Counted from the first letter of the stretch, positions 1 to 52,571 are shown. The stretch is 64,000 nucleotides of DNA from an uncultured archaeon (GCA_964584335.1 CAZOZN010000002.1:8025-72024), one strand, 5' to 3'. Numbers and translations are program-made. The notes: generated by a model from the letters alone, not told the origin.

Positions 1-3000
1 GAGTTTATGTAAAGTATCGTTCCTGTACAATCTGTTATGTTTTTAGTCAAAGTAGTGGATTCATTGACGTAATCACCGCAATCCAAAACCTTCTTTACCT
101 TTATCTCGTGTTCCGAACCAAGGTTTATAGTAAAAGATGGAAGGTTGCCGGAGCCGTCCGTGATTAAGGTATAAGCAATCACAGAATTGTTGTAAACATT
201 ATAATATTCGTTTGAAAGCAATCCACTCAAGTCGTAAGTTGTCGTTACTCCGGAACCGCTCGTATTGCTGTCATTCCACTTCAATTCTCCCTGCTTCCAG
301 GTTAACAGTTCTCTTTCCAGAGTTGCCTGCGTGGAAACGGAAGTATTTAGCCATATACCTGACGAAGAATCGTTCTTGTAGTTAAAGCTGCTTGAAGTAT
401 CATTTAAGTTTATTTCTCTTGCTGTCGTGAATCCAGTATCAACAAAGTAGTCCGCGTCCGAACCCATTAATACATAATCATCACCGGAGCTGGCGCTTAT
501 TACTCCGCCGGTAATGCCTGAACCCGAACCCTTGAAAAGCCTTACTCCCGCATTCTGACCGGTTATTGTGTTGTCTGTTAAGGTGTTGTCGGAAGAACCG
601 AAAAACACTATACCCTCGTAACCGTCATCTATGATATTATTGTTCATTACTATGTTGCTGTGATTTATCCACAATCCACGCCCCCTGTAATCAGAAATAT
701 CGGAATTCCAACCGCAGTAATAAAGACTGCTGTCGTTCATCAAAAATCCTTCAGAGCTGTAAACCCAGAAGAAGAAATGAGCGCTTTCATTTCCTCCGTT
801 AACCTTTCCACCATTTGATATTATAGATTTGTCAAAAATCTCAAGATATCCCCTTGGAGTAACTTCTATTCCAATATGACCGTCTCTCGAAGCATTAATA
901 AGAAGCTTGGTGCGATTTACGTAATACCTGCCTACTATAGTTACATTGTTATTAACTATCAATGTCTCATTTGAAAGGACTGTCTTAAGGGTAGCATTGT
1001 CCTTAACTACCAAGGAACTCATATTTATGCTTCCCCTCCTGAAAACAACTTCCATATCGCTATCTATCACAAGATTCTTGTCAGTTGTTATGTTCATGTT
1101 CTCGCAAGTTAAGTTTCTGTTTATTGTCCAGTTTTCTCCGTACTTTGGAGGATAACACCTGCTCTTTGTGGTAAAGGAATATGTCTGGGAATTATTCCAC
1201 TTGTTTGAGGTATCGTTTGCGTAAACCTTCCAGGCAATTCCCGCGCCATAAGTAGAGTTGATTACCTTGGTAACGTTTGACCAGTCCTGAGTCCCACCGT
1301 TTGGGAAAGAAGACCACGTGTCGTTGTGCCAATTATCGTCGGATGAGGTAATGTTCCAAAACATTGAGTACTCAAAAATCGCACCGTTTTGGTTAACATT
1401 CCTTATATTTTTCCAATCGCCTGAAGTATTATAACAGTACCAATCAATATCTCCATTAATTGCATTAGAAAAAAATCTAAAAACTAGTTTAGAACTATCA
1501 TAGTTCCAGCAAGAAGAAGGTATTGTAAGATTATCGCTGCCGAAACCATCCTTAATTTTCAACAAGCTAAAGCTTAAGGCGCCATCGGGTTTAGTATAGT
1601 TAAAGTAATAATATGTACCAGGGCCGGAAATCGAAGTACTCCAATTTCCATCACGAGATAATGAACCATCAGGACCGTCATCGTAGTAAGAACCGGTGTA
1701 ATACAAAGCACAGTTTCCGTCAACAGGAGGATCTTCATCAGTTGAAGTTTGGTTAGTTGAATTGTCTGTCATATTTGTAAATTCTTGATAACATAAGCTT
1801 CCGCTAGATACAGCTCCGCAATCAGTCCCGTTCCAGCTACCGTTGCACAAGGAAAAAATGTAGCCGCTTAATCCGGAATCCTCCGTCCAGTTAAGTCCGA
1901 ACTTTACGGCTTCACCGGCATAGCTTGAATTAGTGTAATTATTCCAGTACTTTGGTGCAGCATTACCAACGACTCTTATCTCCTTTTCGCTGCCGTCATG
2001 GCTTATCGTAAAGCCTTCCAGTTCCCCGTTTGCGTCAGTGCTCAAAGTGTAAGCAAGAACAGAATTATTGTATACATTATAGCTTTCACTGGCATCGAGC
2101 CCGCTTATGTTGTATGTCGCAACCAAGGATGAAGAAGACGTATCGTTCCATTTTACCAAACTAACTCCCCAGTTGGTTATCTTTCTTGTAAGGTTGTGAC
2201 CGCCCGTGTCAACGGATGTGTTGACAAAAAGACCGCCGGAGTCGTGGTCATAGTTAAACCTAGAACCCGTGTCCACGAGATGGATTATTCTTTCCCGGGA
2301 AAAATTTGTCTCAACGAAAGAGTTGTTGTATGAATTCGACTCAAGTCTGTAATCTCTCATGTTCGAGTGAATGGAGCCAAGTTTTATCAGGTTGTTTGAG
2401 GAATCATAAGCAACTAAACCATTTGTATTTGACTTGATTATGTTGCCTGTCAAATAGTTATCAAGAGATTTGTATATGTAAATTCCGCTTGTGCTATAAG
2501 TTACGTTGTTGTAACTTACGTTATTTGAAGATGAAGGAGTGGAAGAAATCTTGAATATATAAATTCCTTTTGTGGCATTATATATTTCGTTATATTTTAC
2601 TATGTTGTTTTCACTGCCGTGAACTTCTATTCCATAACAAAAATTGGAACCATTAAATTCATTATTTAAAATATTATTGTAATTAGAATAAGACAACCTT
2701 AATAAGTATGAGTTAGATTCCTGACCTTTAAGTAAATTATTTTGAATAGTATTATTGTAAGATTGATAAAGACCGATTCCGTCTCCTTCTGTTCCCCTAA
2801 AAGTATTTTGAATTATAGTATTGTTTCTCGACTTTAAATAAATCTTTTGATTTCTTCCGTCATAAAAAGTATTATTCTCAACTAAACAAAAATCCGAACC
2901 AGTATCTATAATCAAAGAAATCTCATCTAAACCAGTATGTTTAACAGTATGTATAGTGTTGTTTTCAATTGTGCTGTTAGGACAGGAATCCAAATCAACG

Positions 3001-6000
3001 TTATAATTGGCATTATTGTGAATTGTATTGTTTAGAATAGTAGTGTTTCTGCCTGATTGGCATTGTATCCCATCGTAAAAATCCCTTATTTCGCAGTTCT
3101 TTATTGTATTGTAGTTTGAGCCGTCGCCTGTGTTATCCAATATAATTCCATACTCATGGGAGCCCGCACCATCGCCATCAAAGGTGTTGCCCTGACAGTC
3201 AAAAGTAACACCGTCCTTACCATTGAAATCTATACATGTTCCGTCATATTCCGCGGGTGTGGTTATCAACCTGACTTCATCCCCCGAAGAGGTGTTTCCA
3301 ACAGCCGATTCACAGTCATCACAATCGGTGCACTCAGCTATGTTTGTCACTGTGAATGTTCCTATTGAAGTAGAATTCTGGTTTCCGTAGGTGTTGTTTG
3401 CGTAGAACCTGTAACCAACCGCCTTGTTGAGACAGCCAAAAGGTATCCTCTTTGTTGTATTTGTCCAGTTGCCTGCCTGGAAAGTTGAAGTGCTTACGTT
3501 GGACCATCCGCCGGAGCAGTTGTTTGTTCCGTTCCAGCTGAAGGTATAATTTGAAAGCTCGCTTTCGTCAGTCCACTGCGAATACATCTTAACATAGGTT
3601 CCGGCGTTAGGTCCGGTAACGTTATCGCCGAAGTTCGAATAACTCGGTTTTTCCACATAAGACAGTGTGGTGTTGAAGGTGTATATTTCAGATGTGTTCC
3701 AGTTACCGGATGTGTCATTTGCCCTTACCTGCCAGGCAATCCAAGAACCGACAGTAGAATTAACTACCTTGGTAACATTGGACCAGTCTTCCGTACCGGA
3801 AAAGCCACCGCTTTCGTCGGTCCATGTATCATTCTGCCAACCCGATCCAAGACAATTTGCTCCGTTCCACGTCCCGTTACAAAAACTGAAAATGTATCCG
3901 GAAAGACCGACGTTGTCTGTCCATCTCAGACTGAATTCAACATCCTCGCCAGCTCCCGTAGAATTAGTCGAGTTGTCAAAATACTTGGGCTCCTCTGAGT
4001 CAACAACAGTGTATGTCTGCATTGGCATCGTGTAATTCCAGTTATCGCTGGTGTCATTAGCATACAAGAACCATCCAATGAGAGAGCCTGCTCCGGCAGT
4101 TGCCTGACTAGATACGTTAGACCATCCATAAGTTTTATTCTCAGTGGTGGTGAACATCAAATCGTAGTCAGAGCCTGTTCTGTTAGCATATGAAATTACC
4201 GCGTAATCCATAGAATCATATTTTTCTGCGACAAGAGTTCCCCTATTAATAGATATAGACCTGTCTCTGCCGTAAGTATACCTGTAAAGTCCCACAATAT
4301 TTCTGCAGGACCAACCACCGTCACCTTTGCAGTATCTCATTCTGTAAGGAACGGTATAGTTAACGTGAACTATGTGTATATCGTTGTTTTCATCGATAGC
4401 GATAGAGGAATAACGCCCGACATCGCCTCCTGTATCGATAGCACCACAATCCGGGCTTCCGCCAGAAATTCTACAGTACCTTAAATTGTCGTTTGTTGAA
4501 TCATAATGGCTTATATGAGAAACCCCATTAGGAGAAAGTGCTATCGACGAAAAAGAACCGTAAACATTCGTAGCATGACTGTCAGCGTCCATGCAACTAA
4601 AGCTCATACTATTAAAACCACTTTCCTCGCAATATCTCAAGTTACCGGAACTGGCATTCTGATGGCTTATTATAGAAATCAAATCTCTTCCAATGGCTAT
4701 TGAATTGTAGTAACCAACATTTCCTCCAGATTCAACGTCAGTACAGGACCAAGAGCCCCCATAAAACCTACAATATCTCAGGTCTCTGTTATCTATTTCC
4801 TGGTGTACGATTCTTACCATATCTTTATCTCCGACCGCTATAGAGCAATAGTAACCATCCTGTGTCTCCGAGTCAGGCGAAGAACAGCTCCAGGAACCCC
4901 CAGAGTTGTTGCAGTACCTTAAGTCCCTACTGGTATCATTGTAGTGACATATGTGAAGTACGTCAAATCTGTCTACTGCTATTGAAGAATGCATACCAAC
5001 AACACCTCCCGTCTCCACTGCAGTACAGCTCCAAGAGCCCCCCGAATTATTGCAGTATCTCAGGTCTCTGTTATCAGCATCATAATGGCTTATATGGTAG
5101 ACACCGTTGGAATCCACCGCAATAGAACTGTCATATCCCAAATTATTTGTAGTTTCCACCGTGCCGTTTGTCTGGTCAAAAAACTTTTCAGTATAGTTGG
5201 TCCAGGAACTCGTACCGTTCCACGAGAAAGTGTATGAATCCAGTTCCACGTCATCCTCCCAGAAGGCATAGTGCTTTACGTAATCATTTTGTTCAGGGTA
5301 TGTTCCAGCCGAAGAGTTATCACCCTCTTTTGAATATTTCGGCGGCTCGGAATCTATTGTTGTGGTTGTGGAGGTTGTTGATGTGGTGGAGGTAGTTGAA
5401 GTGGTCGATGTGGTGGAGGTGGTGGAAGTTGTTGAGGTGGAGGTTGAAGTCGAGGTTGATGTCGTGGAGGTGGTGGAGGTTGTGGACGTAGATGTTGAAG
5501 TCGAGGTTGATGTTGTTGAAGAAGCACTGCATATACATTCTTGAAACGGCTGGCAATTATTCTGTACTGGCAACTTACAATCACCAAATCTGCATCCTGA
5601 AACAGTACAGTTTGGTTGATTAACCATACTACAAGAACCGGAAGCACAATAACTCAAAGCTTGACAACTACTGTCACAGTCGTAAATTGTTGTTGTTGTT
5701 GTTGTTGTTTCTACGTCGCATACACAAAATCTCTCTGGAGCGTCATTGCATGGGTCCGTGTCAAATATACATGGCGTGCTGTCGCATGTACCACTGCAAC
5801 CCGGATAACTATCATCCGTACAATACCCCGTATCACAATTCTCATCCATTTTTTGGCAAGCTTCCGCACATTCTTTATCATCCAGAGTCCCGTAATCCCC
5901 CCCGCTTTCCGCATCACCGTACCAGCCGTAGTCGTATGGCTCCATTGTTTTTTTGTTTTTTACCGCGTTATGGAGGTCCAGACGGGATATGTTTATTTCA

Positions 6001-7784
6001 AGAGTCGAGTTGTATTCGTAGATAATTGGAAGCCCTGTGCTCCTGAGCCTTTGCTTAAGGTCCGTTACGTTGAGTGTTTCTTTTTCAAGCAAAAGAAGCG
6101 ATGCACCAGATACGTGAGGTGCTGAAAAGGAGGTTCCGGTTCCGGTTCCTGAAGGCGTGGTTATGTTTACTCCGGGAGAAAAAGAGTCAAGGGTGGGATT
6201 GACTGAAGAAAAATTTGCTATGTTGTCATTATCATCCGTGGCTCCTACGGAAAAAACCTTTGAGCCGCACGCGGGCGCTTTCATGCTCCTGTTTCCCTCG
6301 TTTCCGGCGGCGGCGACAACAAAAATCTGCTGGTCAAACGCCTGTGCGCTCATGCTAGCAACGAGGTTTGAATCGCAAAAACCGTCGTAATTTCCCGAAC
6401 CTATGGAGAAGCTTATCAAATCGGGCTCCTGGTCTATGCACCATTCAAGACCTGCAAGTACGTCCGATTCGTAGCCAAAACCGCTTCCGTTTATAACCTT
6501 TGCAACAAGTATATCCGCATCAGGTGCAATTTCATCTATTATCGAAACTACTTTTGTGCCGTGTCCGTTGTTGTCTTCGGGGTCGGTATCATTGTTAACA
6601 AAATCATAACCGTCTAAAAAATCGATGCCGGAAACGCCCGTGTCCAGAACACAGACAGTCTTTCCAGAACCTGTCAAGTTAAATTCATCTACTGACTCGT
6701 TCCATCTTATTATTGGAAGGGATTCCTCAAGCAGGAGAGAGAATTTGCTGTCTATTCTTATCTCCAATATATCAGTATTGTTTCTAAGTAATTCGAGGTC
6801 CTCTTCACTTAATTTGGTAGAAATAAAATTAATCCTGTCAAGACCCTTTGTTTTCCTGTCATAGCTTTCACTTCCTCTCAGGGAAGGTATTCTTTCATTA
6901 ATCAATTTCCAGTAGGCAGACTGGTTTCTTGCCCTTACCAAAACTCTTACCCTTTCCTTTTTTCTTAATTCTTCCTCTACTTTTCTGTCAACATCAACAT
7001 TGTACTTCACAGAAAGAAATGGATTTTCTTCCTTTACCAAGGGATTTTTAAGCTTGATTTCCTCAAAACTGTAATCAATCTCATCTATGTATAAAACCAC
7101 ATTATCAAGTTCCATCTCTATGCTGTAAGAACTGTCGGTAAGGTTTTCGACACTTAGATTGCATGTTTCCCTGCATTCGTTGTTAAAATTTACTGTAACA
7201 GAATCCAAATTAATTTCCCGTGATATCGATGAGGTAGTTTGAAGAGAAGTTGTTGTGTTTGTTAATTGTTCTGTTTCATTTTCCAAAGTCTTATTTTCTT
7301 TTATTGTATTATTTGAGAAGGTATCGTTTTGAATTATTGTCGTTTGTGTTGTTGATGTTGTAGGTATTGTTGTGTTTACAGAAGTTTCATTTTGTCTAAT
7401 TGTTGTGGTGGTGTTTTCATCTTTGTTTGTTTCATTCCCAAAAGTAGTATTATCTCCTATAATATAACCTGTTATGCCTGATTCTGTCCTTATTATTGTA
7501 TGGTTTAAAAGTAGATATCTTTTTTCTTCATTTACAAGATAAACTCTTGCGTATCCTGTATCATTTCCCCTTATGTAACCTGTCGCCTTTAAAAAAGAAA
7601 GCTTGCCCTCATCATAATTATCAGGTTCCCAGACAAAACTACTGTTACCCTCTGCAATTACATCAATTTCCTGAGACTCCGCGGCAGTATAGAGACCAGT
7701 TATGCCGCTTCTTTCATAAAAGACCAAAGGACTGAGCGCCAGAATTATAAGTGAGAATAGCAAAAATTCCCTTAAAATTTTCAT
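1..7784 (-). CDS. Giant secreted/surface multidomain protein (partial; C-terminal end runs off the window; >=2594 aa). Domains: signal peptide, S8 subtilisin-like protease, Ser/Thr linkers, Cys-rich segment, ~45-aa repeats, two parallel beta-helix regions.
   Basis: Manual minus-strand translation from ATG at 7784-7782 (SD GGAGGTG 7 nt upstream): MKILREFLLFSLIILALSPLVFY... Subtilase triad motifs read directly: VLDTGVSGID (~6625-6660), NNGHGTKVVSI (~6555-6590), GTGTGTSFSAPHVSGAS (~6095-6135). Poly-STSTS and TTTTTTT linkers (~5340-5545, 5688-5711). Repeats SIA.D..G..HI.HYD...RDLRYC.NSGGSWSC (~4250-5150). PbH1-like NNTIxNN repeats (~2400-3100 and ~500-1100). The ORF track lists no plus-strand ORFs here and no >=60-aa minus-strand ORF sharing this start. 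It is absent from the track because it has no in-window stop. Confidence 0.8.
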   Translation of the reverse strand, partial: MKILREFLLFSLIILALSPLVFYERSGITGLYTAAESQEIDVIAEGNSSFVWEPDNYDEGKLSFLKATGYIRGNDTGYARVYLVNEEKRYLLLNHTIIRTESGITGYIIGDNTTFGNETNKDENTTTTIRQNETSVNTTIPTTSTTQTTIIQNDTFSNNTIKENKTLENETEQLTNTTTSLQTTSSISREINLDSVTVNFNNECRETCNLSVENLTDSSYSIEMELDNVVLYIDEIDYSFEEIKLKNPLVKEENPFLSVKYNVDVDRKVEEELRKKERVRVLVRARNQSAYWKLINERIPSLRGSESYDRKTKGLDRINFISTKLSEEDLELLRNNTDILEIRIDSKFSLLLEESLPIIRWNESVDEFNLTGSGKTVCVLDTGVSGIDFLDGYDFVNNDTDPEDNNGHGTKVVSIIDEIAPDADILVAKVINGSGFGYESDVLAGLEWCIDQEPDLISFSIGSGNYDGFCDSNLVASMSAQAFDQQIFVVAAAGNEGNRSMKAPACGSKVFSVGATDDNDNIANFSSVNPTLDSFSPGVNITTPSGTGTGTSFSAPHVSGASLLLLEKETLNVTDLKQRLRSTGLPIIYEYNSTLEINISRLDLHNAVKNKKTMEPYDYGWYGDAESGGDYGTLDDKECAEACQKMDENCDTGYCTDDSYPGCSGTCDSTPCIFDTDPCNDAPERFCVCDVETTTTTTTIYDCDSSCQALSYCASGSCSMVNQPNCTVSGCRFGDCKLPVQNNCQPFQECICSASSTTSTSTSTSTSTTSTTSTTSTSTSTSTSTTSTTSTTSTTSTTSTTSTTSTTTTIDSEPPKYSKEGDNSSAGTYPEQNDYVKHYAFWEDDVELDSYTFSWNGTSSWTNYTEKFFDQTNGTVETTNNLGYDSSIAVDSNGVYHISHYDADNRDLRYCNNSGGSWSCTAVETGGVVGMHSSIAVDRFDVLHICHYNDTSRDLRYCNNSGGSWSCSSPDSETQDGYYCSIAVGDKDMVRIVHQEIDNRDLRYCRFYGGSWSCTDVESGGNVGYYNSIAIGRDLISIISHQNASSGNLRYCEESGFNSMSFSCMDADSHATNVYGSFSSIALSPNGVSHISHYDSTNDNLRYCRISGGSPDCGAIDTGGDVGRYSSIAIDENNDIHIVHVNYTVPYRMRYCKGDGGWSCRNIVGLYRYTYGRDRSISINRGTLVAEKYDSMDYAVISYANRTGSDYDLMFTTTENKTYGWSNVSSQATAGAGSLIGWFLYANDTSDNWNYTMPMQTYTVVDSEEPKYFDNSTNSTGAGEDVEFSLRWTDNVGLSGYIFSFCNGTWNGANCLGSGWQNDTWTDESGGFSGTEDWSNVTKVVNSTVGSWIAWQVRANDTSGNWNTSEIYTFNTTLSYVEKPSYSNFGDNVTGPNAGTYVKMYSQWTDESELSNYTFSWNGTNNCSGGWSNVSTSTFQAGNWTNTTKRIPFGCLNKAVGYRFYANNTYGNQNSTSIGTFTVTNIAECTDCDDCESAVGNTSSGDEVRLITTPAEYDGTCIDFNGKDGVTFDCQGNTFDGDGAGSHEYGIILDNTGDGSNYNTIKNCEIRDFYDGIQCQSGRNTTILNNTIHNNANYNVDLDSCPNSTIENNTIHTVKHTGLDEISLIIDTGSDFCLVENNTFYDGRNQKIYLKSRNNTIIQNTFRGTEGDGIGLYQSYNNTIQNNLLKGQESNSYLLRLSYSNYNNILNNEFNGSNFCYGIEVHGSENNIVKYNEIYNATKGIYIFKISSTPSSSNNVSYNNVTYSTSGIYIYKSLDNYLTGNIIKSNTNGLVAYDSSNNLIKLGSIHSNMRDYRLESNSYNNSFVETNFSRERIIHLVDTGSRFNYDHDSGGLFVNTSVDTGGHNLTRKITNWGVSLVKWNDTSSSSLVATYNISGLDASESYNVYNNSVLAYTLSTDANGELEGFTISHDGSEKEIRVVGNAAPKYWNNYTNSSYAGEAVKFGLNWTEDSGLSGYIFSLCNGSWNGTDCGAVSSGSLCYQEFTNMTDNSTNQTSTDEDPPVDGNCALYYTGSYYDDGPDGSLSRDGNWSTSISGPGTYYYFNYTKPDGALSFSLLKIKDGFGSDNLTIPSSCWNYDSSKLVFRFFSNAINGDIDWYCYNTSGDWKNIRNVNQNGAIFEYSMFWNITSSDDNWHNDTWSSFPNGGTQDWSNVTKVINSTYGAGIAWKVYANDTSNKWNNSQTYSFTTKSRCYPPKYGENWTINRNLTCENMNITTDKNLVIDSDMEVVFRRGSINMSSLVVKDNATLKTVLSNETLIVNNNVTIVGRYYVNRTKLLINASRDGHIGIEVTPRGYLEIFDKSIISNGGKVNGGNESAHFFFWVYSSEGFLMNDSSLYYCGWNSDISDYRGRGLWINHSNIVMNNNIIDDGYEGIVFFGSSDNTLTDNTITGQNAGVRLFKGSGSGITGGVISASSGDDYVLMGSDADYFVDTGFTTAREINLNDTSSSFNYKNDSSSGIWLNTSVSTQATLERELLTWKQGELKWNDSNTSGSGVTTTYDLSGLLSNEYYNVYNNSVIAYTLITDGSGNLPSFTINLGSEHEIKVKKVLDCGDYVNESTTLTKNITDCTGTILYIN

Positions 7785-7993
7785 TTCTTTGCACCTCCGT
7801 TGAGGTAGCAAAGCTTTGCTATGCCCAGCTTTCTTATCTTTATCTTTCCAGAGCCCTCCAGCCTGTAAACATACTTGGTAACCGTGTGCCTGTGGGCTCC
7901 TATCGCATCCGCAAGGTCAAGTATCATCGTGCCTTCTGGATGCTTCTTGAGGTATTTTAGTATCTTTTTTTCTATTTCTTCCATTAAAAACAC
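7781..7993 (-). CDS. Small winged-helix (wHTH) DNA-binding transcriptional regulator; its stop overlaps the giant gene start (ATGA).
   Basis: 70 aa; ...ILDLADAIGAHRHTVTKYVYRLEGSGKIKIRKLG is a typical HTH recognition helix plus wing. TGA stop at 7783-7781 overlaps ATG 7784-7782 of the downstream giant gene. Confidence 0.6.
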   Translation of the reverse strand: MFLMEEIEKKILKYLKKHPEGTMILDLADAIGAHRHTVTKYVYRLEGSGKIKIRKLGIAKLCYLNGGAKK

Positions 7994-8229: not shown

Positions 8230-8622
8230 ATGGGTGTTAAATTGGGTGACAAGAATCAGGGGAAAATTCTTGTTTCTGAAGACTTGCTCAAGGTAAGAAA
8301 CCTGATAGGAGCACCAAGAAAAATAAGAGTTAGGGATAACAGAGAAGAAGTTCTTACACAGCTTAAGGAGCTGGGCTATAAGATAGAAACAATTGAAAAA
8401 AACAAGAAAAGAAACAAAAAGAGCATAACACCCAAAAGAAAAAAGCAGATTTTGTTCATACTAAAAGACAAGAAATTGACTTCTAGAAAAGTTGGTAAAA
8501 TACTCGGTATGTCGAGAAGCAGGGCAAACGAATACCTCAAGTTCATGGAGGAAGAAGGTATTTTAGTGGGCGAAAAGAAAGGAAGGAAAAAATATTATAC
8601 AATAAAATTGGTGACAAAATGA
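8230..8622 (+). CDS. Lys-rich DNA-binding protein with C-terminal wHTH; overlaps the downstream MinD/ParA gene by 4 nt.
   Basis: 130 aa; C-terminal LTSRKVGKILGMSRSRANEYLKFMEEEGILVGEKKGRKKYY is a wHTH; ATGA overlap at 8619-8622. Confidence 0.5.
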   Translation: MGVKLGDKNQGKILVSEDLLKVRNLIGAPRKIRVRDNREEVLTQLKELGYKIETIEKNKKRNKKSITPKRKKQILFILKDKKLTSRKVGKILGMSRSRANEYLKFMEEEGILVGEKKGRKKYYTIKLVTK

Positions 8623-12064: not shown

Positions 12065-12194
12065 GCTGGGATGGCCGAGCGGACCAAGGCGCTAGCCTGG
12101 AAAGCTAGTATGCTTCGGCATGCGAGGGTTCGAAAGTGTATATTTTCTTTTATCAAAAGAGAAAATAATGCTGTAATTCCCTCTCCCAGCGCCA
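12065..12194 (+). tRNA. tRNA-Ser(GGA) with a ~43-nt intron in the T-loop region (about position 59/60); encoded CCA.
   Basis: Acceptor GCTGGGA/TCCCAGC, discriminator G, class-II D-arm GCC-GAGCGGACCAAG-GGC, anticodon stem CTAGC/GCTAG, loop CTGGAAA, variable hairpin ATGC-TTCG-GCAT, T-stem GAGGG. T-loop TTCGAA(A) is then interrupted by 12136-12178 before CCCTC. Confidence 0.75.
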
Positions 12195-27370: not shown

Positions 27371-28321
27371 ATGATTGAAAAGTCTACTGAGATATCAAAC
27401 CCAGATTTCGGAAATTACCCCGGAGAAAGAAAAACAATAGAAATAATAAATAATGGTATAGTTGTTCTAGACAAGCCATCAGGACCCACTTCTCATCAAG
27501 TAGCTTCATGGGTTAAAAATATATTGAAAATAAAAAAGGTAGGTCACTCGGGTACTCTAGACCCTAAGGTTACGGGCGTTTTAGTTCTAACTCTAGGAAA
27601 AGCTACAAAAATGATACCTGCTTTAATGGGATTAGACAAGGAATATGTTTCCATAATGCATCTTCACGAAAATGTTTCAAGAAAAGACCTTGAAGAAACA
27701 GTCAAAAAATTCACGGGAAAAATAAAACAAAAACCACCTAAAAGAAGTGCGGTAAAAAGAAGAAGAAGAGTGAGAGAAATATACGACATTAAAATATTAG
27801 AAAGAAAGGAAAACGACGTTTTATTGGATATTAAATGCCAAAAAGGCACTTACGTAAGAAAATTAATACACGACATGGGCAAAGATTTAGGAAAGGGGGC
27901 GCACATGAAAGAGCTAAGAAGAATAAAGGTCGGCCCATTTGATGAAAGTTCATGCGTAAATCTTCAGGAGCTAAAAGATTCTTTTGTTCTGTGGGAAGAG
28001 GAAAAAGAAAATAAAATAAGGGAAATTATAAAACCGGTCGAATTCGGTGCAGAACACCTTAAAAAAATAATAGTAAGAGACAGTGCAGTAAACGCTCTTT
28101 GCAACGGAGCACCTCTTGCTGTTGGAGGTATATGCAAACTTGATGAAAAAATAAAAAAAGGAGACATGGTTGCTGTACTAACACTCAAAGGGGAATTGAT
28201 AGCTCTGGGTTATTCGAAAATGGACTCGGAAGAAATAAAGAATTCTAAAAGGGGAATAGCGACAAGCACTGATAGGGTAATCATGAAAATTGATTTATAC
28301 CCGAAAATGTGGAAGAAATGA
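27371..28321 (+). CDS. cbf5: H/ACA RNP pseudouridine synthase Cbf5 (TruB family, PUA domain).
   Basis: VVLDKPSGPTSHQV...KVGHSGTLDPKVTGVLVL is the TruB catalytic motif with the catalytic Asp; C-terminal PUA-like region. Confidence 0.85.
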   Translation: MIEKSTEISNPDFGNYPGERKTIEIINNGIVVLDKPSGPTSHQVASWVKNILKIKKVGHSGTLDPKVTGVLVLTLGKATKMIPALMGLDKEYVSIMHLHENVSRKDLEETVKKFTGKIKQKPPKRSAVKRRRRVREIYDIKILERKENDVLLDIKCQKGTYVRKLIHDMGKDLGKGAHMKELRRIKVGPFDESSCVNLQELKDSFVLWEEEKENKIREIIKPVEFGAEHLKKIIVRDSAVNALCNGAPLAVGGICKLDEKIKKGDMVAVLTLKGELIALGYSKMDSEEIKNSKRGIATSTDRVIMKIDLYPKMWKK

Positions 28322-29828: not shown

Positions 29829-30049
29829 GCTGGGGTGGCCGAGCCAGGCTAAAGGCGCTGGAGTTCTATACAACGGCGAGACTTGAGTACCTGGTATTGT
29901 CCATCAATCTGGGAATGATCAAATGGCTTGAATCTGACTATGGCGGAGATGATGATGGATGGCTAAGATATCCAGTTCCACGAAAGATGATGTTGATTTT
30001 TTCGCATCAGTTGAATGGAGCGGGGGTTCGAATCCCTCCCCCAGCGCCA
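29829..30049 (+). tRNA. Class-II (Ser-type: 3-bp D-stem, discriminator G) tRNA gene of 221 nt with ~130 nt of intronic insertion. Probably more than one intron. Anticodon not resolved by eye (candidates include TGA).
   Basis: Acceptor GCTGGGG/CCCCAGC with G discriminator and CCA; D-arm GCC-GAGCCAGGCTAAA-GGC; 5' anticodon-stem half CTGGA (29858-29862) and its complement TCCAG at 29971-29975; T-arm GGGGG-TTCGAAT-CCCTC at 30022-30038. Confidence 0.6.
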
Positions 30050-35040: not shown

Positions 35041-35163
35041 CCCCGGATAGCTCAGCGGTAGAGCGGTCGGCTGTAGACTCATACTAAAAGTATTAGTTGA
35101 ATAGCAATCGTTCAAAAAGCAGGAACCGACAGGTCCTGTGTTCGAATCACAGTCCGGGGACCA
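35041..35163 (+). tRNA. tRNA-Tyr(GTA) with a 47-nt intron at the canonical anticodon-loop position (37/38); encoded CCA.
   Basis: Acceptor CCCCGGA/TCCGGGG, discriminator A; D-arm GCTC-AGCGGTA-GAGC; anticodon stem GTCGG, loop CTGTAG|intron|A, 3' stem CCGAC; T-arm CTGTG-TTCGAAT-CACAG. Confidence 0.75.
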
Positions 35164-35318
35164 AAATTATAATTATAAATAACTACAAAAAAGTAAAAAA
35201 TCGACTGTTTTCTTTATGACGAAATCTGAGAGGTGCCCAATAAAGGCTCTAGATGGTAAATAAGAGTATATTTAAACTAACCGAAAGCTTTTTAAAGGTT
35301 TTCATACTAATAGTAGAC

Positions 35319-35433
<115 letters not shown>

Positions 35434-35548
35434 ATCAATAAATCATGTTCACTTGGGGTCGATAAGATTTTAATGAAAAAAATTAGCCTGTTAGAATTAC
35501 CTATTTAAAGCTTTATAACTAACATTTAGAGTTAACTATTAAAAATTT

Positions 35549-35647
35549 GCCCCGGTAGTGTAGCGGTCTAGCATACGGCCCTGTCGGGACCCTCAGTAAA
35601 GTTGCGGTAAGGCTGTGACCCGGGTTCGAATCCCGGCTGGGGCGCCA
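35549..35647 (+). tRNA. Class-I tRNA (99 nt) with a ~23-nt intron in the anticodon loop; best model is tRNA-Asp(GTC).
   Basis: Acceptor GCCCCGG/CTGGGGC (one G-U), G, CCA; D-arm GTGT-AGCGGTCTAGC-ATAC; candidate anticodon stem CGGCC, loop CTGTCG|intron 35587-35609|A, GGCTG; variable TGAC; T-arm CCGGG-TTCGAAT-CCCGG. Confidence 0.5.
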
Positions 35648-35653
35648 AAGATT

Positions 35654-35742
35654 GGGCCTATAGCTCAGCCTGGTAGAGCACCGGCCTTTTAACATTAGAG
35701 GAAAGCCGGGTGTCGAGGGTTCGAATCCCTCTGGGCCCGCCA
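35654..35742 (+). tRNA. tRNA-Lys(TTT) with a 12-nt intron at 37/38.
   Basis: Acceptor GGGCCTA/TGGGCCC, G, CCA; D-arm GCTC-AGCCTGGTA-GAGC; anticodon stem CCGGC, loop CTTTTA|ACATTAGAGGAA|A, GCCGG; variable GTGTC; T-arm GAGGG-TTCGAAT-CCCTC. Confidence 0.65.
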
Positions 35743-43694: not shown

Positions 43695-43853
43695 GGGCCC
43701 ATAGCTCAGCCTGGTAGAGCACTCGGCTCTTAACCGAGTTGTCGAGGGTTCGAATGAGCCTTTCTTCAAAAGAAAGCCTCAAGGGAAAGAACTTGGAAAA
43801 CTCTCTGAGTTTTCCCATGCTTAAATCCTAAGAAAATCCCTCTGGGCCCGCCA
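43695..43853 (+). tRNA. tRNA-Lys(CTT) with an ~82-nt intron in the T-loop (about 59/60).
   Basis: Acceptor GGGCCCA/TGGGCCC, G, CCA; D-arm GCTC-AGCCTGGTA-GAGC; anticodon stem CTCGG, loop CTCTTAA, CCGAG; variable TTGTC; T-stem GAGGG; T-loop TTCGAA(T) interrupted by 43756-43837 before CCCTC. Confidence 0.75.
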
Positions 43854-47688: not shown

Positions 47689-48837
47689 ATGAAATCAAGT
47701 ATGATACTTTGCAGGTTTGGAGAGAGTGTGCTTAAAGCGGATTATACAAGAAGATATTTCGAAAACAAGCTTTTATCAAACATATCAAAAGAATTTAAGA
47801 AAAAAGATATAGAGTTTTCAGTAAAAAGGGAACCGGGGAGACTTTTCATAAAGACAAAAAAAATAGATAAATCGTGCGATATACTAAAAAAGACATTCGG
47901 CATTACAAGTGTTTCTCCAGTAAAGGAAATTAAAATAAAAAGCGATATAGAGAAGATTGTAAAATACTCGGAGAAAATAGCAAGAGATTTAATCAAAAAA
48001 GACAATACTTTCGCAGTAAGGGCAAGAAGAACAGGTAATGATGCATTTACAAGCAAGATGATAGAAAGGAAGGTAGGTTCCAGGATAATAGAAAAAACTG
48101 GTGCGAAGGTGGACCTTGATAAACCGGATAAAATACTATATATTGAAGTAAGACAAAACAAAGCCTATTTTTTTACAGAAAGAATAAAATGTCCGGGAGG
48201 TCTTCCTTTAGGAACACAAGGGAATGTGGTAGTTCTTTTTTCGGGCGGAATAGACTCGGCGGTAGCTTCCTGGATGTTAATGAAAAGAGGATGTAGGATA
48301 TTCCCTCTGTATATAGACCCTTCTCCTTATGTAGAAGGCAAAAAAAGTTTAATCAGAGCAGAAAAGGTCTTGGAAGATTTAAAAAAGTGGTCTGTTGGTC
48401 AAAATATTGAACTGAAAAAAGTAAAAACTGGTAAAATAATGGATTGTTTTACAGAAAAATGCAAGCTTAATCTTACATGCTTGTTATGTAAGAGACTTAT
48501 GTACAGAATAGCTGAAATTTTTTGCAAAAAGAAAAAAGCGAAAGCAATAGTGACTGGAGAAAACTTGGGACAGGTTGCATCTCAAACACTTGACAACATA
48601 AACGTTTTAAATCAGGCCGTTTCACTCCCTATTCTAAGACCACTTATAGGTATGGACAAAACAGAAATAATAAAAATTGCAAGAAATATAGGAACATACG
48701 ACTCATCTACAATAAAAACTTCCGGTTGTTCTGCAGTTCCAGAATCTCCGAGAACAAAAGGCAGGATAGAAGAAGTTTTAAAAGAAGAAGAAAAAATAGA
48801 CATTAAAAAAAAGATGGAAGAATTATTAAAAATGTAA
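47689..48837 (+). CDS. thiI: tRNA 4-thiouridine synthase / sulfurtransferase ThiI (THUMP plus PP-loop).
   Basis: PP-loop VVVLFSGGIDSAVASWMLMKRGCRIFPLYID; N-terminal ferredoxin-like/THUMP region. Confidence 0.8.
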   Translation: MKSSMILCRFGESVLKADYTRRYFENKLLSNISKEFKKKDIEFSVKREPGRLFIKTKKIDKSCDILKKTFGITSVSPVKEIKIKSDIEKIVKYSEKIARDLIKKDNTFAVRARRTGNDAFTSKMIERKVGSRIIEKTGAKVDLDKPDKILYIEVRQNKAYFFTERIKCPGGLPLGTQGNVVVLFSGGIDSAVASWMLMKRGCRIFPLYIDPSPYVEGKKSLIRAEKVLEDLKKWSVGQNIELKKVKTGKIMDCFTEKCKLNLTCLLCKRLMYRIAEIFCKKKKAKAIVTGENLGQVASQTLDNINVLNQAVSLPILRPLIGMDKTEIIKIARNIGTYDSSTIKTSGCSAVPESPRTKGRIEEVLKEEEKIDIKKKMEELLKM

Positions 48838-48869: not shown

Positions 48870-49268
48870 GTGTGTGTTATGGGTGTTAAAATACCTAATT
48901 CTGAACTAGTAAAAAGAATTATCTTTTATTCAATGAAAAAAAGGGGTGTAATACATTCACAAGATGAATTATCAGAGATTGTGAAGAGAGAACTAAAAAA
49001 AATAAACAAAAAATTTACAATAACCCCGCACAGGGTAAGAAAAATTGCACTTCAGATAGAAAATATGGAAATAAAGGTTAAAACAAAAAAAAGCAAGAAA
49101 AGCAAACCAAAAAAATGTCCTGTTTGTGAAAACAAGTTAAAGCCAATATATGCAAAAAATCTTCTCAACAAAAGAATAACTGTTGGTTTTAGGTGTAAAG
49201 TTTGTGGTTATCACGCCGACGAAAAATTTTTTGCGCCAATGAAGTATGAATTCAAGTTAATCAATTAA
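48870..49268 (+). CDS. Hypothetical protein with C-terminal zinc ribbon (CPVC...CKVCG).
   Basis: 132 aa; K-rich linker then C-x2-C-x~30-C-x2-C. Confidence 0.35.
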   Translation: MCVMGVKIPNSELVKRIIFYSMKKRGVIHSQDELSEIVKRELKKINKKFTITPHRVRKIALQIENMEIKVKTKKSKKSKPKKCPVCENKLKPIYAKNLLNKRITVGFRCKVCGYHADEKFFAPMKYEFKLIN

Positions 49269-50169
49269 TAGTATTCAATAATTCGCAAGCCTTACACACA
49301 GAACGAGAAGTTGGTTCACCGCACTTTGAGCAATACCTTATCTCTGAAGAATTCTTAAAATTTTTCTCTATCGGAGGTATTATCTTGTCCATATGCCTGA
49401 TTATATTATGTTTTGTACCGGGGTATTTTTCTTCAATTTCATTTAAAAATTTTTTTACGTCAAATCTGACGCTTTCTTTAGAATTCGGGCAGTGTGAATG
49501 GTAAAATTCTATACCATTAAGATAGCAATAAAGAGCGCTTTCTTTTTCCGGTATCTCCCTAAGAGGCTTTATCCTAGTAACAAAACCTTTCTTCTTGGTG
49601 GGCGGTTTTGGTCCAAGCCTTATAAGCCTGCCTACATCACCCTTTAGATTGTTTATTAAAAAACTTTGTATCTCGTCGTCTAAGTTATGCCCTGTTGCTA
49701 GTTTTGTAGCACCCATTTCTCTTGCTTTCTTGTTTATTATAAACCTTCTTAAAACTCCGCAGTATGTGCAGGCACGGGCATCTATTTTAACAATATCATC
49801 CATATTCTTTCCAAATTCTTCCCTGAAAGAACATACAGTCAATTCAACACCTATCATATTTGATAATTTTTTTAGAGATTTTATGCTTATATCCCTATAA
49901 CCCTTTATACCCTCGTCAATTGTAATTGCATTTACCTTTATGTCAGGCCTTTTTCCGAAGATTTTTTTAATTAAATAAAGAGTAAGAGATGAATCCTTAC
50001 CTCCAGAAACGGCAACAAAAATATTATCATTCTTTACTATAAGATTATTTTTTCTTATGGTCGCCTTTACTTTTGATTCAAGCTGTTTTGAAAAATGACT
50101 TTTACACCAAGCCCTGCCCTCGTACTTTCTATAAATTACTGCATCATTTCCACAGGAATAACACCTCAT
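49261..50169 (-). CDS. PP-loop ATPase of the TtuA/NcsA (Ncs6/Ctu1-like) tRNA 2-thiolation family.
   Basis: N-terminal CxxC Zn finger (CYSCGNDA...WCKSH), PP-loop VAVSGGKDSS, central CTYCG, C-terminal CSKCG...CKAC; ~300 aa. Confidence 0.8.
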   Translation of the reverse strand: MRCYSCGNDAVIYRKYEGRAWCKSHFSKQLESKVKATIRKNNLIVKNDNIFVAVSGGKDSSLTLYLIKKIFGKRPDIKVNAITIDEGIKGYRDISIKSLKKLSNMIGVELTVCSFREEFGKNMDDIVKIDARACTYCGVLRRFIINKKAREMGATKLATGHNLDDEIQSFLINNLKGDVGRLIRLGPKPPTKKKGFVTRIKPLREIPEKESALYCYLNGIEFYHSHCPNSKESVRFDVKKFLNEIEEKYPGTKHNIIRHMDKIIPPIEKNFKNSSEIRYCSKCGEPTSRSVCKACELLNTIN

Positions 50170-51029: not shown

Positions 51030-51190
51030 GCTGAGGTGGGAGAGCGGTTTAATCCGGTTGGCTCGAGACCAACTGCATCTTTGATGCACGCAGGTTCAAA
51101 ACAGACCCTTTAGAAAAGTGTCTGTACTTCCAAAAATGTTTGGAAATCTACGATTTCCCAATTGGAACGAGAATCCTGCCCTCAGCGCCA
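51030..51190 (+). tRNA. tRNA-Ser(CGA) with a ~73-nt intron in the T-loop (about 59/60).
   Basis: Acceptor GCTGAGG/CCTCAGC, discriminator G, CCA; class-II D-arm GGA-GAGCGGTTTAA-TCC; anticodon stem GTTGG, loop CTCGAGA, CCAAC; variable hairpin TGCATC-TTTG-ATGCA; T-stem GCAGG; T-loop TTCAAA(A) interrupted by 51102-51174 before CCTGC. Confidence 0.7.
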
Positions 51191-51947: not shown

Positions 51948-52412
51948 TTGTTTATGTTCACTAAAAAAATTTATTCTGCTTGGGAAGAAAAACAGATTGA
52001 AAAATACAAAGAAATGAGAGATTTGATTCCCAAAGATTTTAATCTGGCATTGGACGTCGGTGTAGGTCCCGGTTGGTTTGAAGAATTCTTTGGTATGAAT
52101 ATCCTGGGAATTGACATTGACAAAAACTCTGCTGCTGATATAATAGCAAGCGGTGATTTTATTCCAATCAGGGAAAATTCCTTTGATTTTGTTATATGTT
52201 TGGATACTATTCATTTGGTTGGAGGAGAAGAAATTAAAAGAGTTCTTAAGCCCCGGGGTTACTTGTTATTATCACACTTCATAAACAAAGACAACGAAAA
52301 CGAGATAGAAAAAAAGCTTTTAAATATGTTCAAAGAATTTAAATTACTGAAAAGAAAAATAGTAGGTAACAAAGAAAAAGACCTTGCAATTTTGTTTGGG
52401 CCTGTGGTCTAG
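51948..52412 (+). CDS. Small class-I SAM-dependent methyltransferase; its last 15 nt overlap the downstream tRNA.
   Basis: Motif I ALDVGVGPGWF; acidic residue after beta2 (LGIDID); motif-IV-like FDFVICLD. Confidence 0.6.
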   Translation: MFMFTKKIYSAWEEKQIEKYKEMRDLIPKDFNLALDVGVGPGWFEEFFGMNILGIDIDKNSAADIIASGDFIPIRENSFDFVICLDTIHLVGGEEIKRVLKPRGYLLLSHFINKDNENEIEKKLLNMFKEFKLLKRKIVGNKEKDLAILFGPVV

Positions 52413-52571
52413 TGGCTATAGATTGACGTGCATTTTTGTGCGTTTCAGCCAGGACGCCACCTTGACGTAAGCTTTTGCAAAAAGCTTAAGCAAAATAAAA
52501 GCTTTCAAAATGGTGGATATCCCCGGTTCGAGAAAGACCCTTAAGGAAAGAGAATCCGGGCGGGCCCACCA
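52398..52571 (+). tRNA. Intron-rich tRNA (174 nt), apparently three introns: D-arm/anticodon junction, anticodon loop, T-loop. Candidate identity tRNA-Val(GAC).
   Basis: Acceptor GGGCCTG/CGGGCCC (one G-U), A, CCA; D-arm GTCT-AGTGGCTAT-AGAT; candidate anticodon stem CCACC (52449-52453)/GGTGG (52512-52516) with loop start TTGACG; duplicated TTGACGT at 52424-52430 and 52456-52462; T-stem CCCGG; T-loop TTCGA interrupted by ~22 nt before CCGGG. Confidence 0.5.

Follow-up and report, generated by a model that had tools for sequence, protein, structure and literature searches.

Position 59/60, in the T-loop, is a listed site of non-canonical introns in archaeal tRNA genes (PMC4090602), and 59/60 introns with a BHB motif are known from Crenarchaeota. 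In the Thermoproteales, the occurrence of like introns in different tRNA species has been read as transposition (Sugahara 2008; Fujishima 2010, as relayed in PMC4033280 and PMC4090602), and Chan et al. (2021) report 0.84 introns per tRNA gene for this group and 71 introns in the 46 genes of P. calidifontis, compared with 0.21 per gene across 217 archaeal genomes (PMC8450103). A first-pass annotation of the DNA studied here held that T-loop introns had previously been reported mainly from Thermoproteales-type crenarchaea. This is incomplete, as the DPANN archaeon ARMAN-2 (Candidatus Micrarchaeum acidiphilum) also has 59/60 introns: they interrupt its pre-tRNA-Cys(GCA) (13 nt) and its pre-tRNA-Pro(GGG), the latter at both 53/54 and 59/60, and the epsilon2 EndA of ARMAN-2 cleaves a relaxed 59/60 substrate in vitro (Fujishima et al. 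2011, PMC3239211). Loop-bearing EndAs of DPANN archaea were linked to tRNA gene disruption by Kaneta et al. (2018), Aenigmarchaeota not being among the organisms analysed, and the same authors noted incomplete tRNA sets in DPANN genomes, in which hidden disrupted genes were suspected (PMC5829648).

The gene under study lies at 12065-12194 (plus strand) of a 64,000-nt stretch of archaeal DNA, referred to here as the window, with EF-1alpha/S10 on one side and the L3-L4 ribosomal protein operon on the other. Its stems, its discriminator base and the ARAGORN call after splicing bear out the earlier assignment as a class II tRNA-Ser with a GGA anticodon and a G discriminator. The acceptor stem reads GCTGGGA/TCCCAGC, the D-arm GCC-GAGCGGACCAA-GGC, the anticodon arm CTAGC-CTGGAAA-GCTAG and the long variable arm ATGC-TTCG-GCAT, while the T-stem is formed by GAGGG (12124-12128) and CCCTC (12179-12183); G73 is at 12191 and the encoded CCA at 12192-12194. 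Within the T-loop, 43 additional nucleotides separate TTCGAA from T-CCCTC. In its unspliced form the gene receives no call from ARAGORN, which gives only three tRNAs in the window, and the match of the Rfam tRNA model is confined to the 5' part (12065-12120, 23 bits, E=2.4). With 12135-12177 removed, ARAGORN recognises the remaining 87 nt, over their full length from base 1 through the CCA, as tRNA-Ser(gga). The 43 nucleotides, mostly a single hairpin (12141-12151 with 12157-12167), then lie between a 5' exon of nucleotides 1-59 (12065-12134), which ends in the T-loop sequence TTCGAA, and a 3' exon (12178-12194) made up of T60, the 3' strands of the T-stem and acceptor stem, G73 and CCA. Judged by its sequence and by the relatives described below, this insert is very probably an EndA-type BHB intron at position 59/60.

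The BHB rule that we applied has four exon bases ending 2 nt before the 5' cut paired with four intron bases ending 2 nt before the 3' cut, and outer and inner helices that flank two 3-nt bulges. As a positive control, the canonical 37/38 intron of tRNA-Val in the window gave a perfect motif (central helix H 4, outer helix 5, inner helix 9). For Ser(GGA), register 59/60 yields an outer helix of 5, H of 3/4 and an inner helix of 4, and it is the sole register that keeps the 5-bp T-stem as the outer helix. On the exon side, the central helix consists of T54 T55 C56 G57 (12129-12132), which face TGTA (12172-12175), the four positions being a U-A pair, a U.U mismatch, a C-G pair and a G.U pair, and the inner helix h' joins GTGT (12136-12139) to ATGC (12168-12171). 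The predicted 5' bulge (12133-12135) consists of A58, A59 and the first intron base, A, with the cut placed after 12134, and the predicted 3' bulge (12176-12178) of A, T and T60, with the cut placed after 12177. Strict hBHBh' motifs are the substrate type of the classical alpha4 and alpha'2 EndAs; with its U.U mismatch in the central helix, the Ser(GGA) junction falls short of this form and is near-strict. The unspliced 130-nt RNA has a fold z-score of -5.3 (200 shuffles). In its minimum-energy RNAfold structure a symmetric 6x6 internal loop lies between the T-stem, which closes it, and the intron hairpin; this loop stays open, and the central BHB helix is not formed.

The window contains nine tRNA genes, all on the plus strand and all with an encoded CCA, of which eight are interrupted, four of them at 59/60. 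Beside Ser(GGA), the interrupted T-loops are those of tRNA-Lys(CTT) (43695-43853), with an 82-nt 59/60 intron at 43755-43836 that belongs to intron family B (splicing with ARAGORN, register analysis and BLAST), tRNA-Ser(CGA) (51030-51190), with a 73-nt 59/60 intron at 51101-51173 of family A (splicing with ARAGORN and alignment), and tRNA-Val(GAC) (52398-52571). The earlier claim that one insertion point recurs in Lys(CTT), Ser(CGA) and a gene at 52398 is thus upheld by splicing, the third of these being Val(GAC). That gene carries introns at 22/23 (52420-52452), 37/38 (52468-52510) and 59/60 (52533-52554, 22 nt), and excision of all three leaves a 76-nt perfect cloverleaf. Three introns in one gene is, to our knowledge, the maximum reported for archaeal tRNA genes. 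The D-arm intron of Val was placed by hand and then verified, automated excision of one to three BHB-like introns being too noisy. The 37/38 introns of the window have the outer-5 geometry with H of 4/4; without a closing inner helix, the canonical introns of the window have perfect central helices.

All four T-loop-split genes of the window were missed by ARAGORN and by the Rfam tRNA model. A strict detector, which called for a split T-arm, a 7-bp acceptor stem, an ARAGORN hit on the spliced product and no overlap with an intact tRNA, returned exactly Ser(GGA), Lys(CTT), Ser(CGA) and Val(GAC) in the window, and, run on 80 loci (~1.3 Mb) from other archaea, it gave zero matches even at a permitted insert length of 8-320 nt. 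Upstream of the rpo operon, 35041-35742 (plus strand) holds the series Tyr(GTA), 5S rRNA, Asp(GTC) and Lys(TTT), whose three tRNA genes have anticodon-loop introns of 48, ~23 and 12 nt, respectively; the Tyr(GTA) gene, with C1-G72 and A73, is miscalled His by ARAGORN. At 29829-30049 (plus strand) is a 221-nt class II Ser-like tRNA gene with the acceptor stem GCTGGGG/CCCCAGC, G73, CCA and an intact T-arm, in which the anticodon-stem halves CTGGA and TCCAG are ~108 nt apart and the variable arm has a ~35-nt insert. We attempted to read it as a standard tRNA, and no combination of excisions yielded a standard anticodon loop.

The closest named relatives of the window's L3 and RpoA'' proteins are Candidatus Aenigmarchaeota/Aenigmatarchaeota MAGs, at 60-74% identity, and on these protein sequences the host is an uncultured DPANN archaeon of the Aenigmarchaeota. 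The exact contig is present in the Logan assemblies of SRR15425351 and SRR15425353 as well as in an NCBI record, and the G+C content of the window is 35%. A scan of genome contigs with the single L3 protein found no close relatives. With RpoA'' as anchor, ±10 kb was taken from each of five relatives, including the closed 833-kb genome CP070662.1, and the clade sample consists of the window and ten related loci, with 44 tRNA genes validated by splicing plus ARAGORN. Distant archaea from an L3-alignment scan, at no more than 51% identity among the matches listed, served as negative-control loci.

Across this sample, 59/60 inserts, of 17-190 nt with a median of 75, are present in 28 of the 44 genes, and 29 genes have at least 8 extra nucleotides elsewhere, while in 15 the 59/60 insert is accompanied by an anticodon-loop intron. 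Only three genes are uninterrupted, leaving 41 interrupted, and the inserts number at least 57, or ~1.3 per gene. With these numbers the clade ranks with the tRNA sets of highest recorded intron density, and in this Aenigmarchaeota subclade 59/60 and the anticodon loop are used at about the same frequency. Ser(CGA) has a 59/60 insert in all five genomes in which it is covered, and the other loci are mosaic. A lineage-wide preference for T-loop introns, as earlier proposed, holds within the window's subclade (L3 at least 65% identical) and fails outside it, as seven more distant Aenigmatarchaeota loci (L3 47-51% identical) have eight ordinary tRNAs and no 59/60 insert. The expansion thus appears as a subclade trait and not a phylum-wide one, in clade and outgroup samples that are small and composed of orthologous regions rather than whole genomes. 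We found no report in the literature of the T-loop intron load in this clade, nor any literature on the closed relative genome CP070662. A 3' CCA is encoded in every recognised tRNA gene of the clade (the window and L083-L099).

The synteny from S10 to L3 is kept in all relatives, which makes the orthologous Ser(GGA) gene readable. In L085 (GCA_023133195.1) this gene is uninterrupted, with the T-loop TTCGAAT, and TTCGAAT is also the mature T-loop of the window's gene in register 59/60. L086 has a 47-nt insert at 59/60, unrelated in sequence and with H of 2/4, L087 has 190 nt (gene at 8330-8605), L091 has 140 nt (3645-3870), and L090 has 98 nt together with a ~38-nt insert in the loop of the variable arm (1319-1537). 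The T-loop is intact in L083, where a ~100-nt intron with the perfect central helix GTTC/GGAC occupies the D-loop instead (4020-4207). At 59/60 of this single locus the insert therefore measures 0, 43 (window), 47, 98, 140 or 190 nt. Between L087 and L091 the Ser(GGA) exons and the 150-nt 3' flanks are identical, and yet the 59/60 introns, of 190 and 140 nt, differ in sequence; a partial copy in L092 is missing an internal module of ~60 nt. The differences among these three sequences indicate intron turnover among very close relatives. When the spliced Ser(GGA) exons are aligned, all 144 of 144 pair cells are standard pairs. Compensatory changes occur in six pairs, three of which belong to the split T-stem (3/5 T-stem pairs covary), and the covariation score of the exons exceeds those of all 500 shuffles and of all slid controls.

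The 28 introns at 59/60 share a common junction. Nucleotide 60 is T in every case and nucleotide 59 is A in 26; the fourth nucleotide upstream of the 3' junction (n-4, at 12173 in the window's Ser(GGA) gene), which pairs with C56, is G in 28/28, and n-3 and n-2 are A or G in 26 and 24 introns, respectively. The central helix has four of four pairs in 12 introns, three in 12 and two in the other 4, so that H reaches at least 3/4 in 24 of 28 introns, against 20% of random 4-mers. By our count these introns fall into at least 11 unrelated sequence groups, and the invariant junction bases would thus not derive from one common ancestor. Just two of the 28 junctions are strict hBHBh' and two more, including that of the window's Ser(GGA), are near-strict; a closing inner helix is missing in most. 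A hairpin begins at intron base 2 in 16 of the 28, an observation to which we give no evidential use, a helix of 4-5 bp being likely by chance, on a rough estimate, in an AT-rich intron of ~70 nt. From these sequences, relaxed hBH-type substrates seem to be the norm in this organism, and with two strict junctions in 28 they fit the inference of the first-pass annotation that the splicing endonuclease is of relaxed specificity. Enzymes that take such relaxed motifs are those of the (alpha-beta)2, epsilon2 or loop-bearing alpha4 type.

Taken together, the junction bases suggest how the precursor could be processed. The T-stem (49-53 with 61-65) would serve as the outer helix, and T54-G57 would pair with the four intron bases ending 2 nt before the 3' junction to form a 4-bp central helix, leaving two 3-nt bulges, one of A58, A59 and i1 and the other of n-1, n and T60, while the intron's own stem would supply the inner helix. 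EndA would then cut in both bulges and an RtcB-type ligase would join the exons. This would restore the T-loop TTCGAAT, which only then could be modified and dock on the D-loop. For Ser(GGA), the excision of the insert, the ligation of the exons and the enzyme are all put forward here on the strength of the DNA sequence. A search for EndA by tblastn and by an HMM built from five EndA catalytic domains, with a query set validated against the PDB, detected none, either across the window or across 1.63 Mb of related loci, and none was seen among the Pfam-scanned proteins of the window; a ligase gene for splicing was not found in either of these bodies of sequence.

Could the 43 nucleotides instead stay in the mature RNA, where they would enlarge the T-arm or form an extra arm with which the tRNA functions as it is or takes on another role? 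The insert is a stable hairpin and the precursor as a whole folds well, as this would require. Every elongator tRNA, however, needs the T-loop fold, which an insert between A59 and T60 would abolish on established tRNA structure. The same locus has no insert in L085, and the inserts range from 17 to 190 nt and are free in sequence except for the few bases that pair with the T-loop. The alternative fold as a long variable arm or T-arm, named beforehand as the outcome that would overturn the intron reading, is contradicted by the intronless ortholog and by this freedom of length and sequence, and we regard retention of the insert as highly improbable. A decaying pseudogene, broken by an insertion and with tRNA-Ser(GGA) supplied by another gene, has in its favor that only 64 kb of the genome is in view, so that a second copy could exist. 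Against it, all helices are intact, the locus between S10 and L3 is kept in all relatives, the exons covary with 100% pairing, and with 41 of 44 clade tRNA genes interrupted, interruption is the normal state. Fully paired, covarying exons together with an intronless ortholog speak against both a retained arm and a pseudogene, and we give the latter just as little credence.

Equally improbable, in our assessment, is that the insert is the scar or a fragment of a mobile genetic element within the tRNA gene's 3' half, whose removal, if any, would not be by EndA. tRNA genes are targets of archaeal integrative elements, which have been proposed as a source of introns (PMC3293823), and intron families are common to unrelated genes of this clade; but the 43 nucleotides lack an ORF, terminal repeats and any duplicated piece of tRNA, and the conserved junction bases stand exactly in the BHB register. 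Self-splicing introns of group I or group II are likewise not indicated, the insert being only 43 nt long and matching no Rfam intron family at the gathering score or at E up to 10. A slightly less remote alternative, though still very unlikely, retains an EndA intron and moves it to 60/61 (12136-12178) or a nearby register, which would give the mature loop TTCGAAA. Either register leaves a 7-nt T-loop, and sequence alone does not fix the junction. At 60/61, however, the outer helix is 0 and H is 2/4, compared with 5 and 3/4, and an inner helix of 4, at 59/60; moreover, T60 is present in the intronless orthologs and follows all 28 related inserts. The first-pass annotation had chosen this 60/61 register, and while its length of 43 nt and its placement in the T-loop stand, we shift the coordinates one base to the left, to 12135-12177. 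An EndA-type intron at 59/60 is accordingly the reading that we prefer for Ser(GGA).

Three families, defined by BLAST and alignment, recur among the 59/60 introns of the clade. Family A, A(A)CAGACCCTTT...AGAAAAGTNCTGTA..CCAAAA...GGAAAGAGAA, is found in six tRNA identities (Ser(GGA), Ser(CGA), Val, Lys(CTT), Tyr and Asp), family B, (A)GAGGCCTTTCTTCAAAAGAAAG..., in three (Lys(CTT), Lys(TTT) and Tyr), and family C, TAGNTTGAGCTGCA...GTGCAACC...GGAT, also in three (Ser(GGA), Ser(CGA) and Lys(TTT)). In this sample all three families occur at 59/60 only, and one orthologous gene can have different families in different genomes. Within the window, the 59/60 introns of Ser(CGA) and Val match at 19 of 22 end positions, a value reached by none of 100,000 shuffles, and from the aligned sequences the Val intron looks like a shortened, internally deleted copy of family A. 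The hosts of this family differ in their T-stems, of which there are at least seven, their acceptor stems are unrelated, and homology stops at the junction, which argues for precise placement and not for conversion of a whole T-arm. In L098, the Lys(TTT) and Lys(CTT) genes of one genome (3731-3904 and 11877-12035) share 100% identical 82-nt 59/60 introns of family B; this identity points to gene conversion within the pair or to a recent copying event. Of the 59/60 introns in the window, those of Ser(CGA), Val(GAC) and Lys(CTT) belong to families A and B, whereas the Ser(GGA) intron is an orphan with no BLAST relative among the 28, and family membership therefore lends this copy no support.

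Whether 59/60 is the preferred landing place in this subclade for small mobile intron families, with one intron functional in any tRNA, is to our minds an evenly balanced question. The rationale would be that the invariant T54-T55-C56-R57 forms the exon side of the central helix and that any T-stem can act as the outer helix, so that one intron would suit any tRNA. If this is true, families could, through such portability, reach the majority of tRNA genes and take one another's place in orthologs, and their spread might proceed by reverse splicing or by recombination through the T-loop.

The surroundings of the gene have features of their own. Between tRNA-Ser and L3 (12225-12411, plus strand) are two TTTAAATA boxes, and after each comes a block that is conserved in L083, L085 and L090; block one reads AAGTCTCTCAACGC... 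and block two is a hairpin, CATAATATTCATATCCGT..ACGG.TTGGTGATTGATACG, and GGTGA directly precedes the L3 start. These boxes and blocks may represent an operon leader together with a small RNA. Interspersed with the window's tRNA genes are three genes for tRNA modification, encoding a Cbf5/TruB-type pseudouridine synthase (27371-28321), ThiI (47689-48837) and a TtuA-like 2-thiouridine synthetase (49261-50169), the last of which adjoins a ThiS/SAMP-like gene in relatives; TtuA acts on position 54 of the T-loop. The first 8 kb, which are ORF-poor and GC-richer, were considered as a source of RNA, a possibility that we rejected in view of a giant minus-strand ORF (3-7916) of at least 2,638 aa that runs off the left edge of the window and contains a Thr/Ser-rich linker of period 9 as well as repeated DLRYC..GGSWSC units. 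Just past the right edge of the window is a 3,063-aa ORF with no Pfam match (L094 1466-10657, minus strand).

The kind of intron described here is already known, and what the clade adds is near-universal interruption, a dominant T-loop site and intron families that extend across unrelated tRNA genes. Since standard tools miss T-loop-split genes, annotations of this lineage will under-report tRNAs and may suggest false decoding gaps. The clade also offers a clean natural system in which to study the spread of archaeal tRNA introns and the features of a permissive endonuclease, for which the Thermoproteales have so far been the main source.

Compared with ARMAN-2, the locus and its relatives share the position 59/60, a DPANN host, mostly relaxed hBH-type junctions and the interruption of most tRNA genes (56% in ARMAN-2). 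They differ in that the host is an Aenigmarchaeon and the introns are longer (17-190 nt, median 75), and in that 59/60 is occupied in 64% of the sampled genes, where in ARMAN-2 it is one site among several; in ARMAN-2, furthermore, the endonuclease is of the epsilon2 type and cleavage has been shown, while the system described here is known as sequence. With the Thermoproteales the clade has in common a heavy load (at least 57 inserts in 44 genes, against 0.84 per gene and, in P. calidifontis, 71 in 46 genes; PMC8450103), up to three introns per gene and similar introns in different tRNA species. Here, however, the lineage is an AT-rich DPANN group and not a hyperthermophilic crenarchaeon, the shared families are, in this sample, confined to the one site 59/60, and DPANN are not expected to have an (alpha-beta)2 endonuclease that bears the crenarchaeal loop (PMC5829648). 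The canonical 37/38 introns, finally, occupy a structurally equivalent position, behind base 6 of a 7-nt loop on a 5-bp stem, and follow the same BHB logic; at 59/60, by contrast, the exon half is the invariant T-loop rather than a gene-specific anticodon loop, and the central helix usually has three of four pairs.
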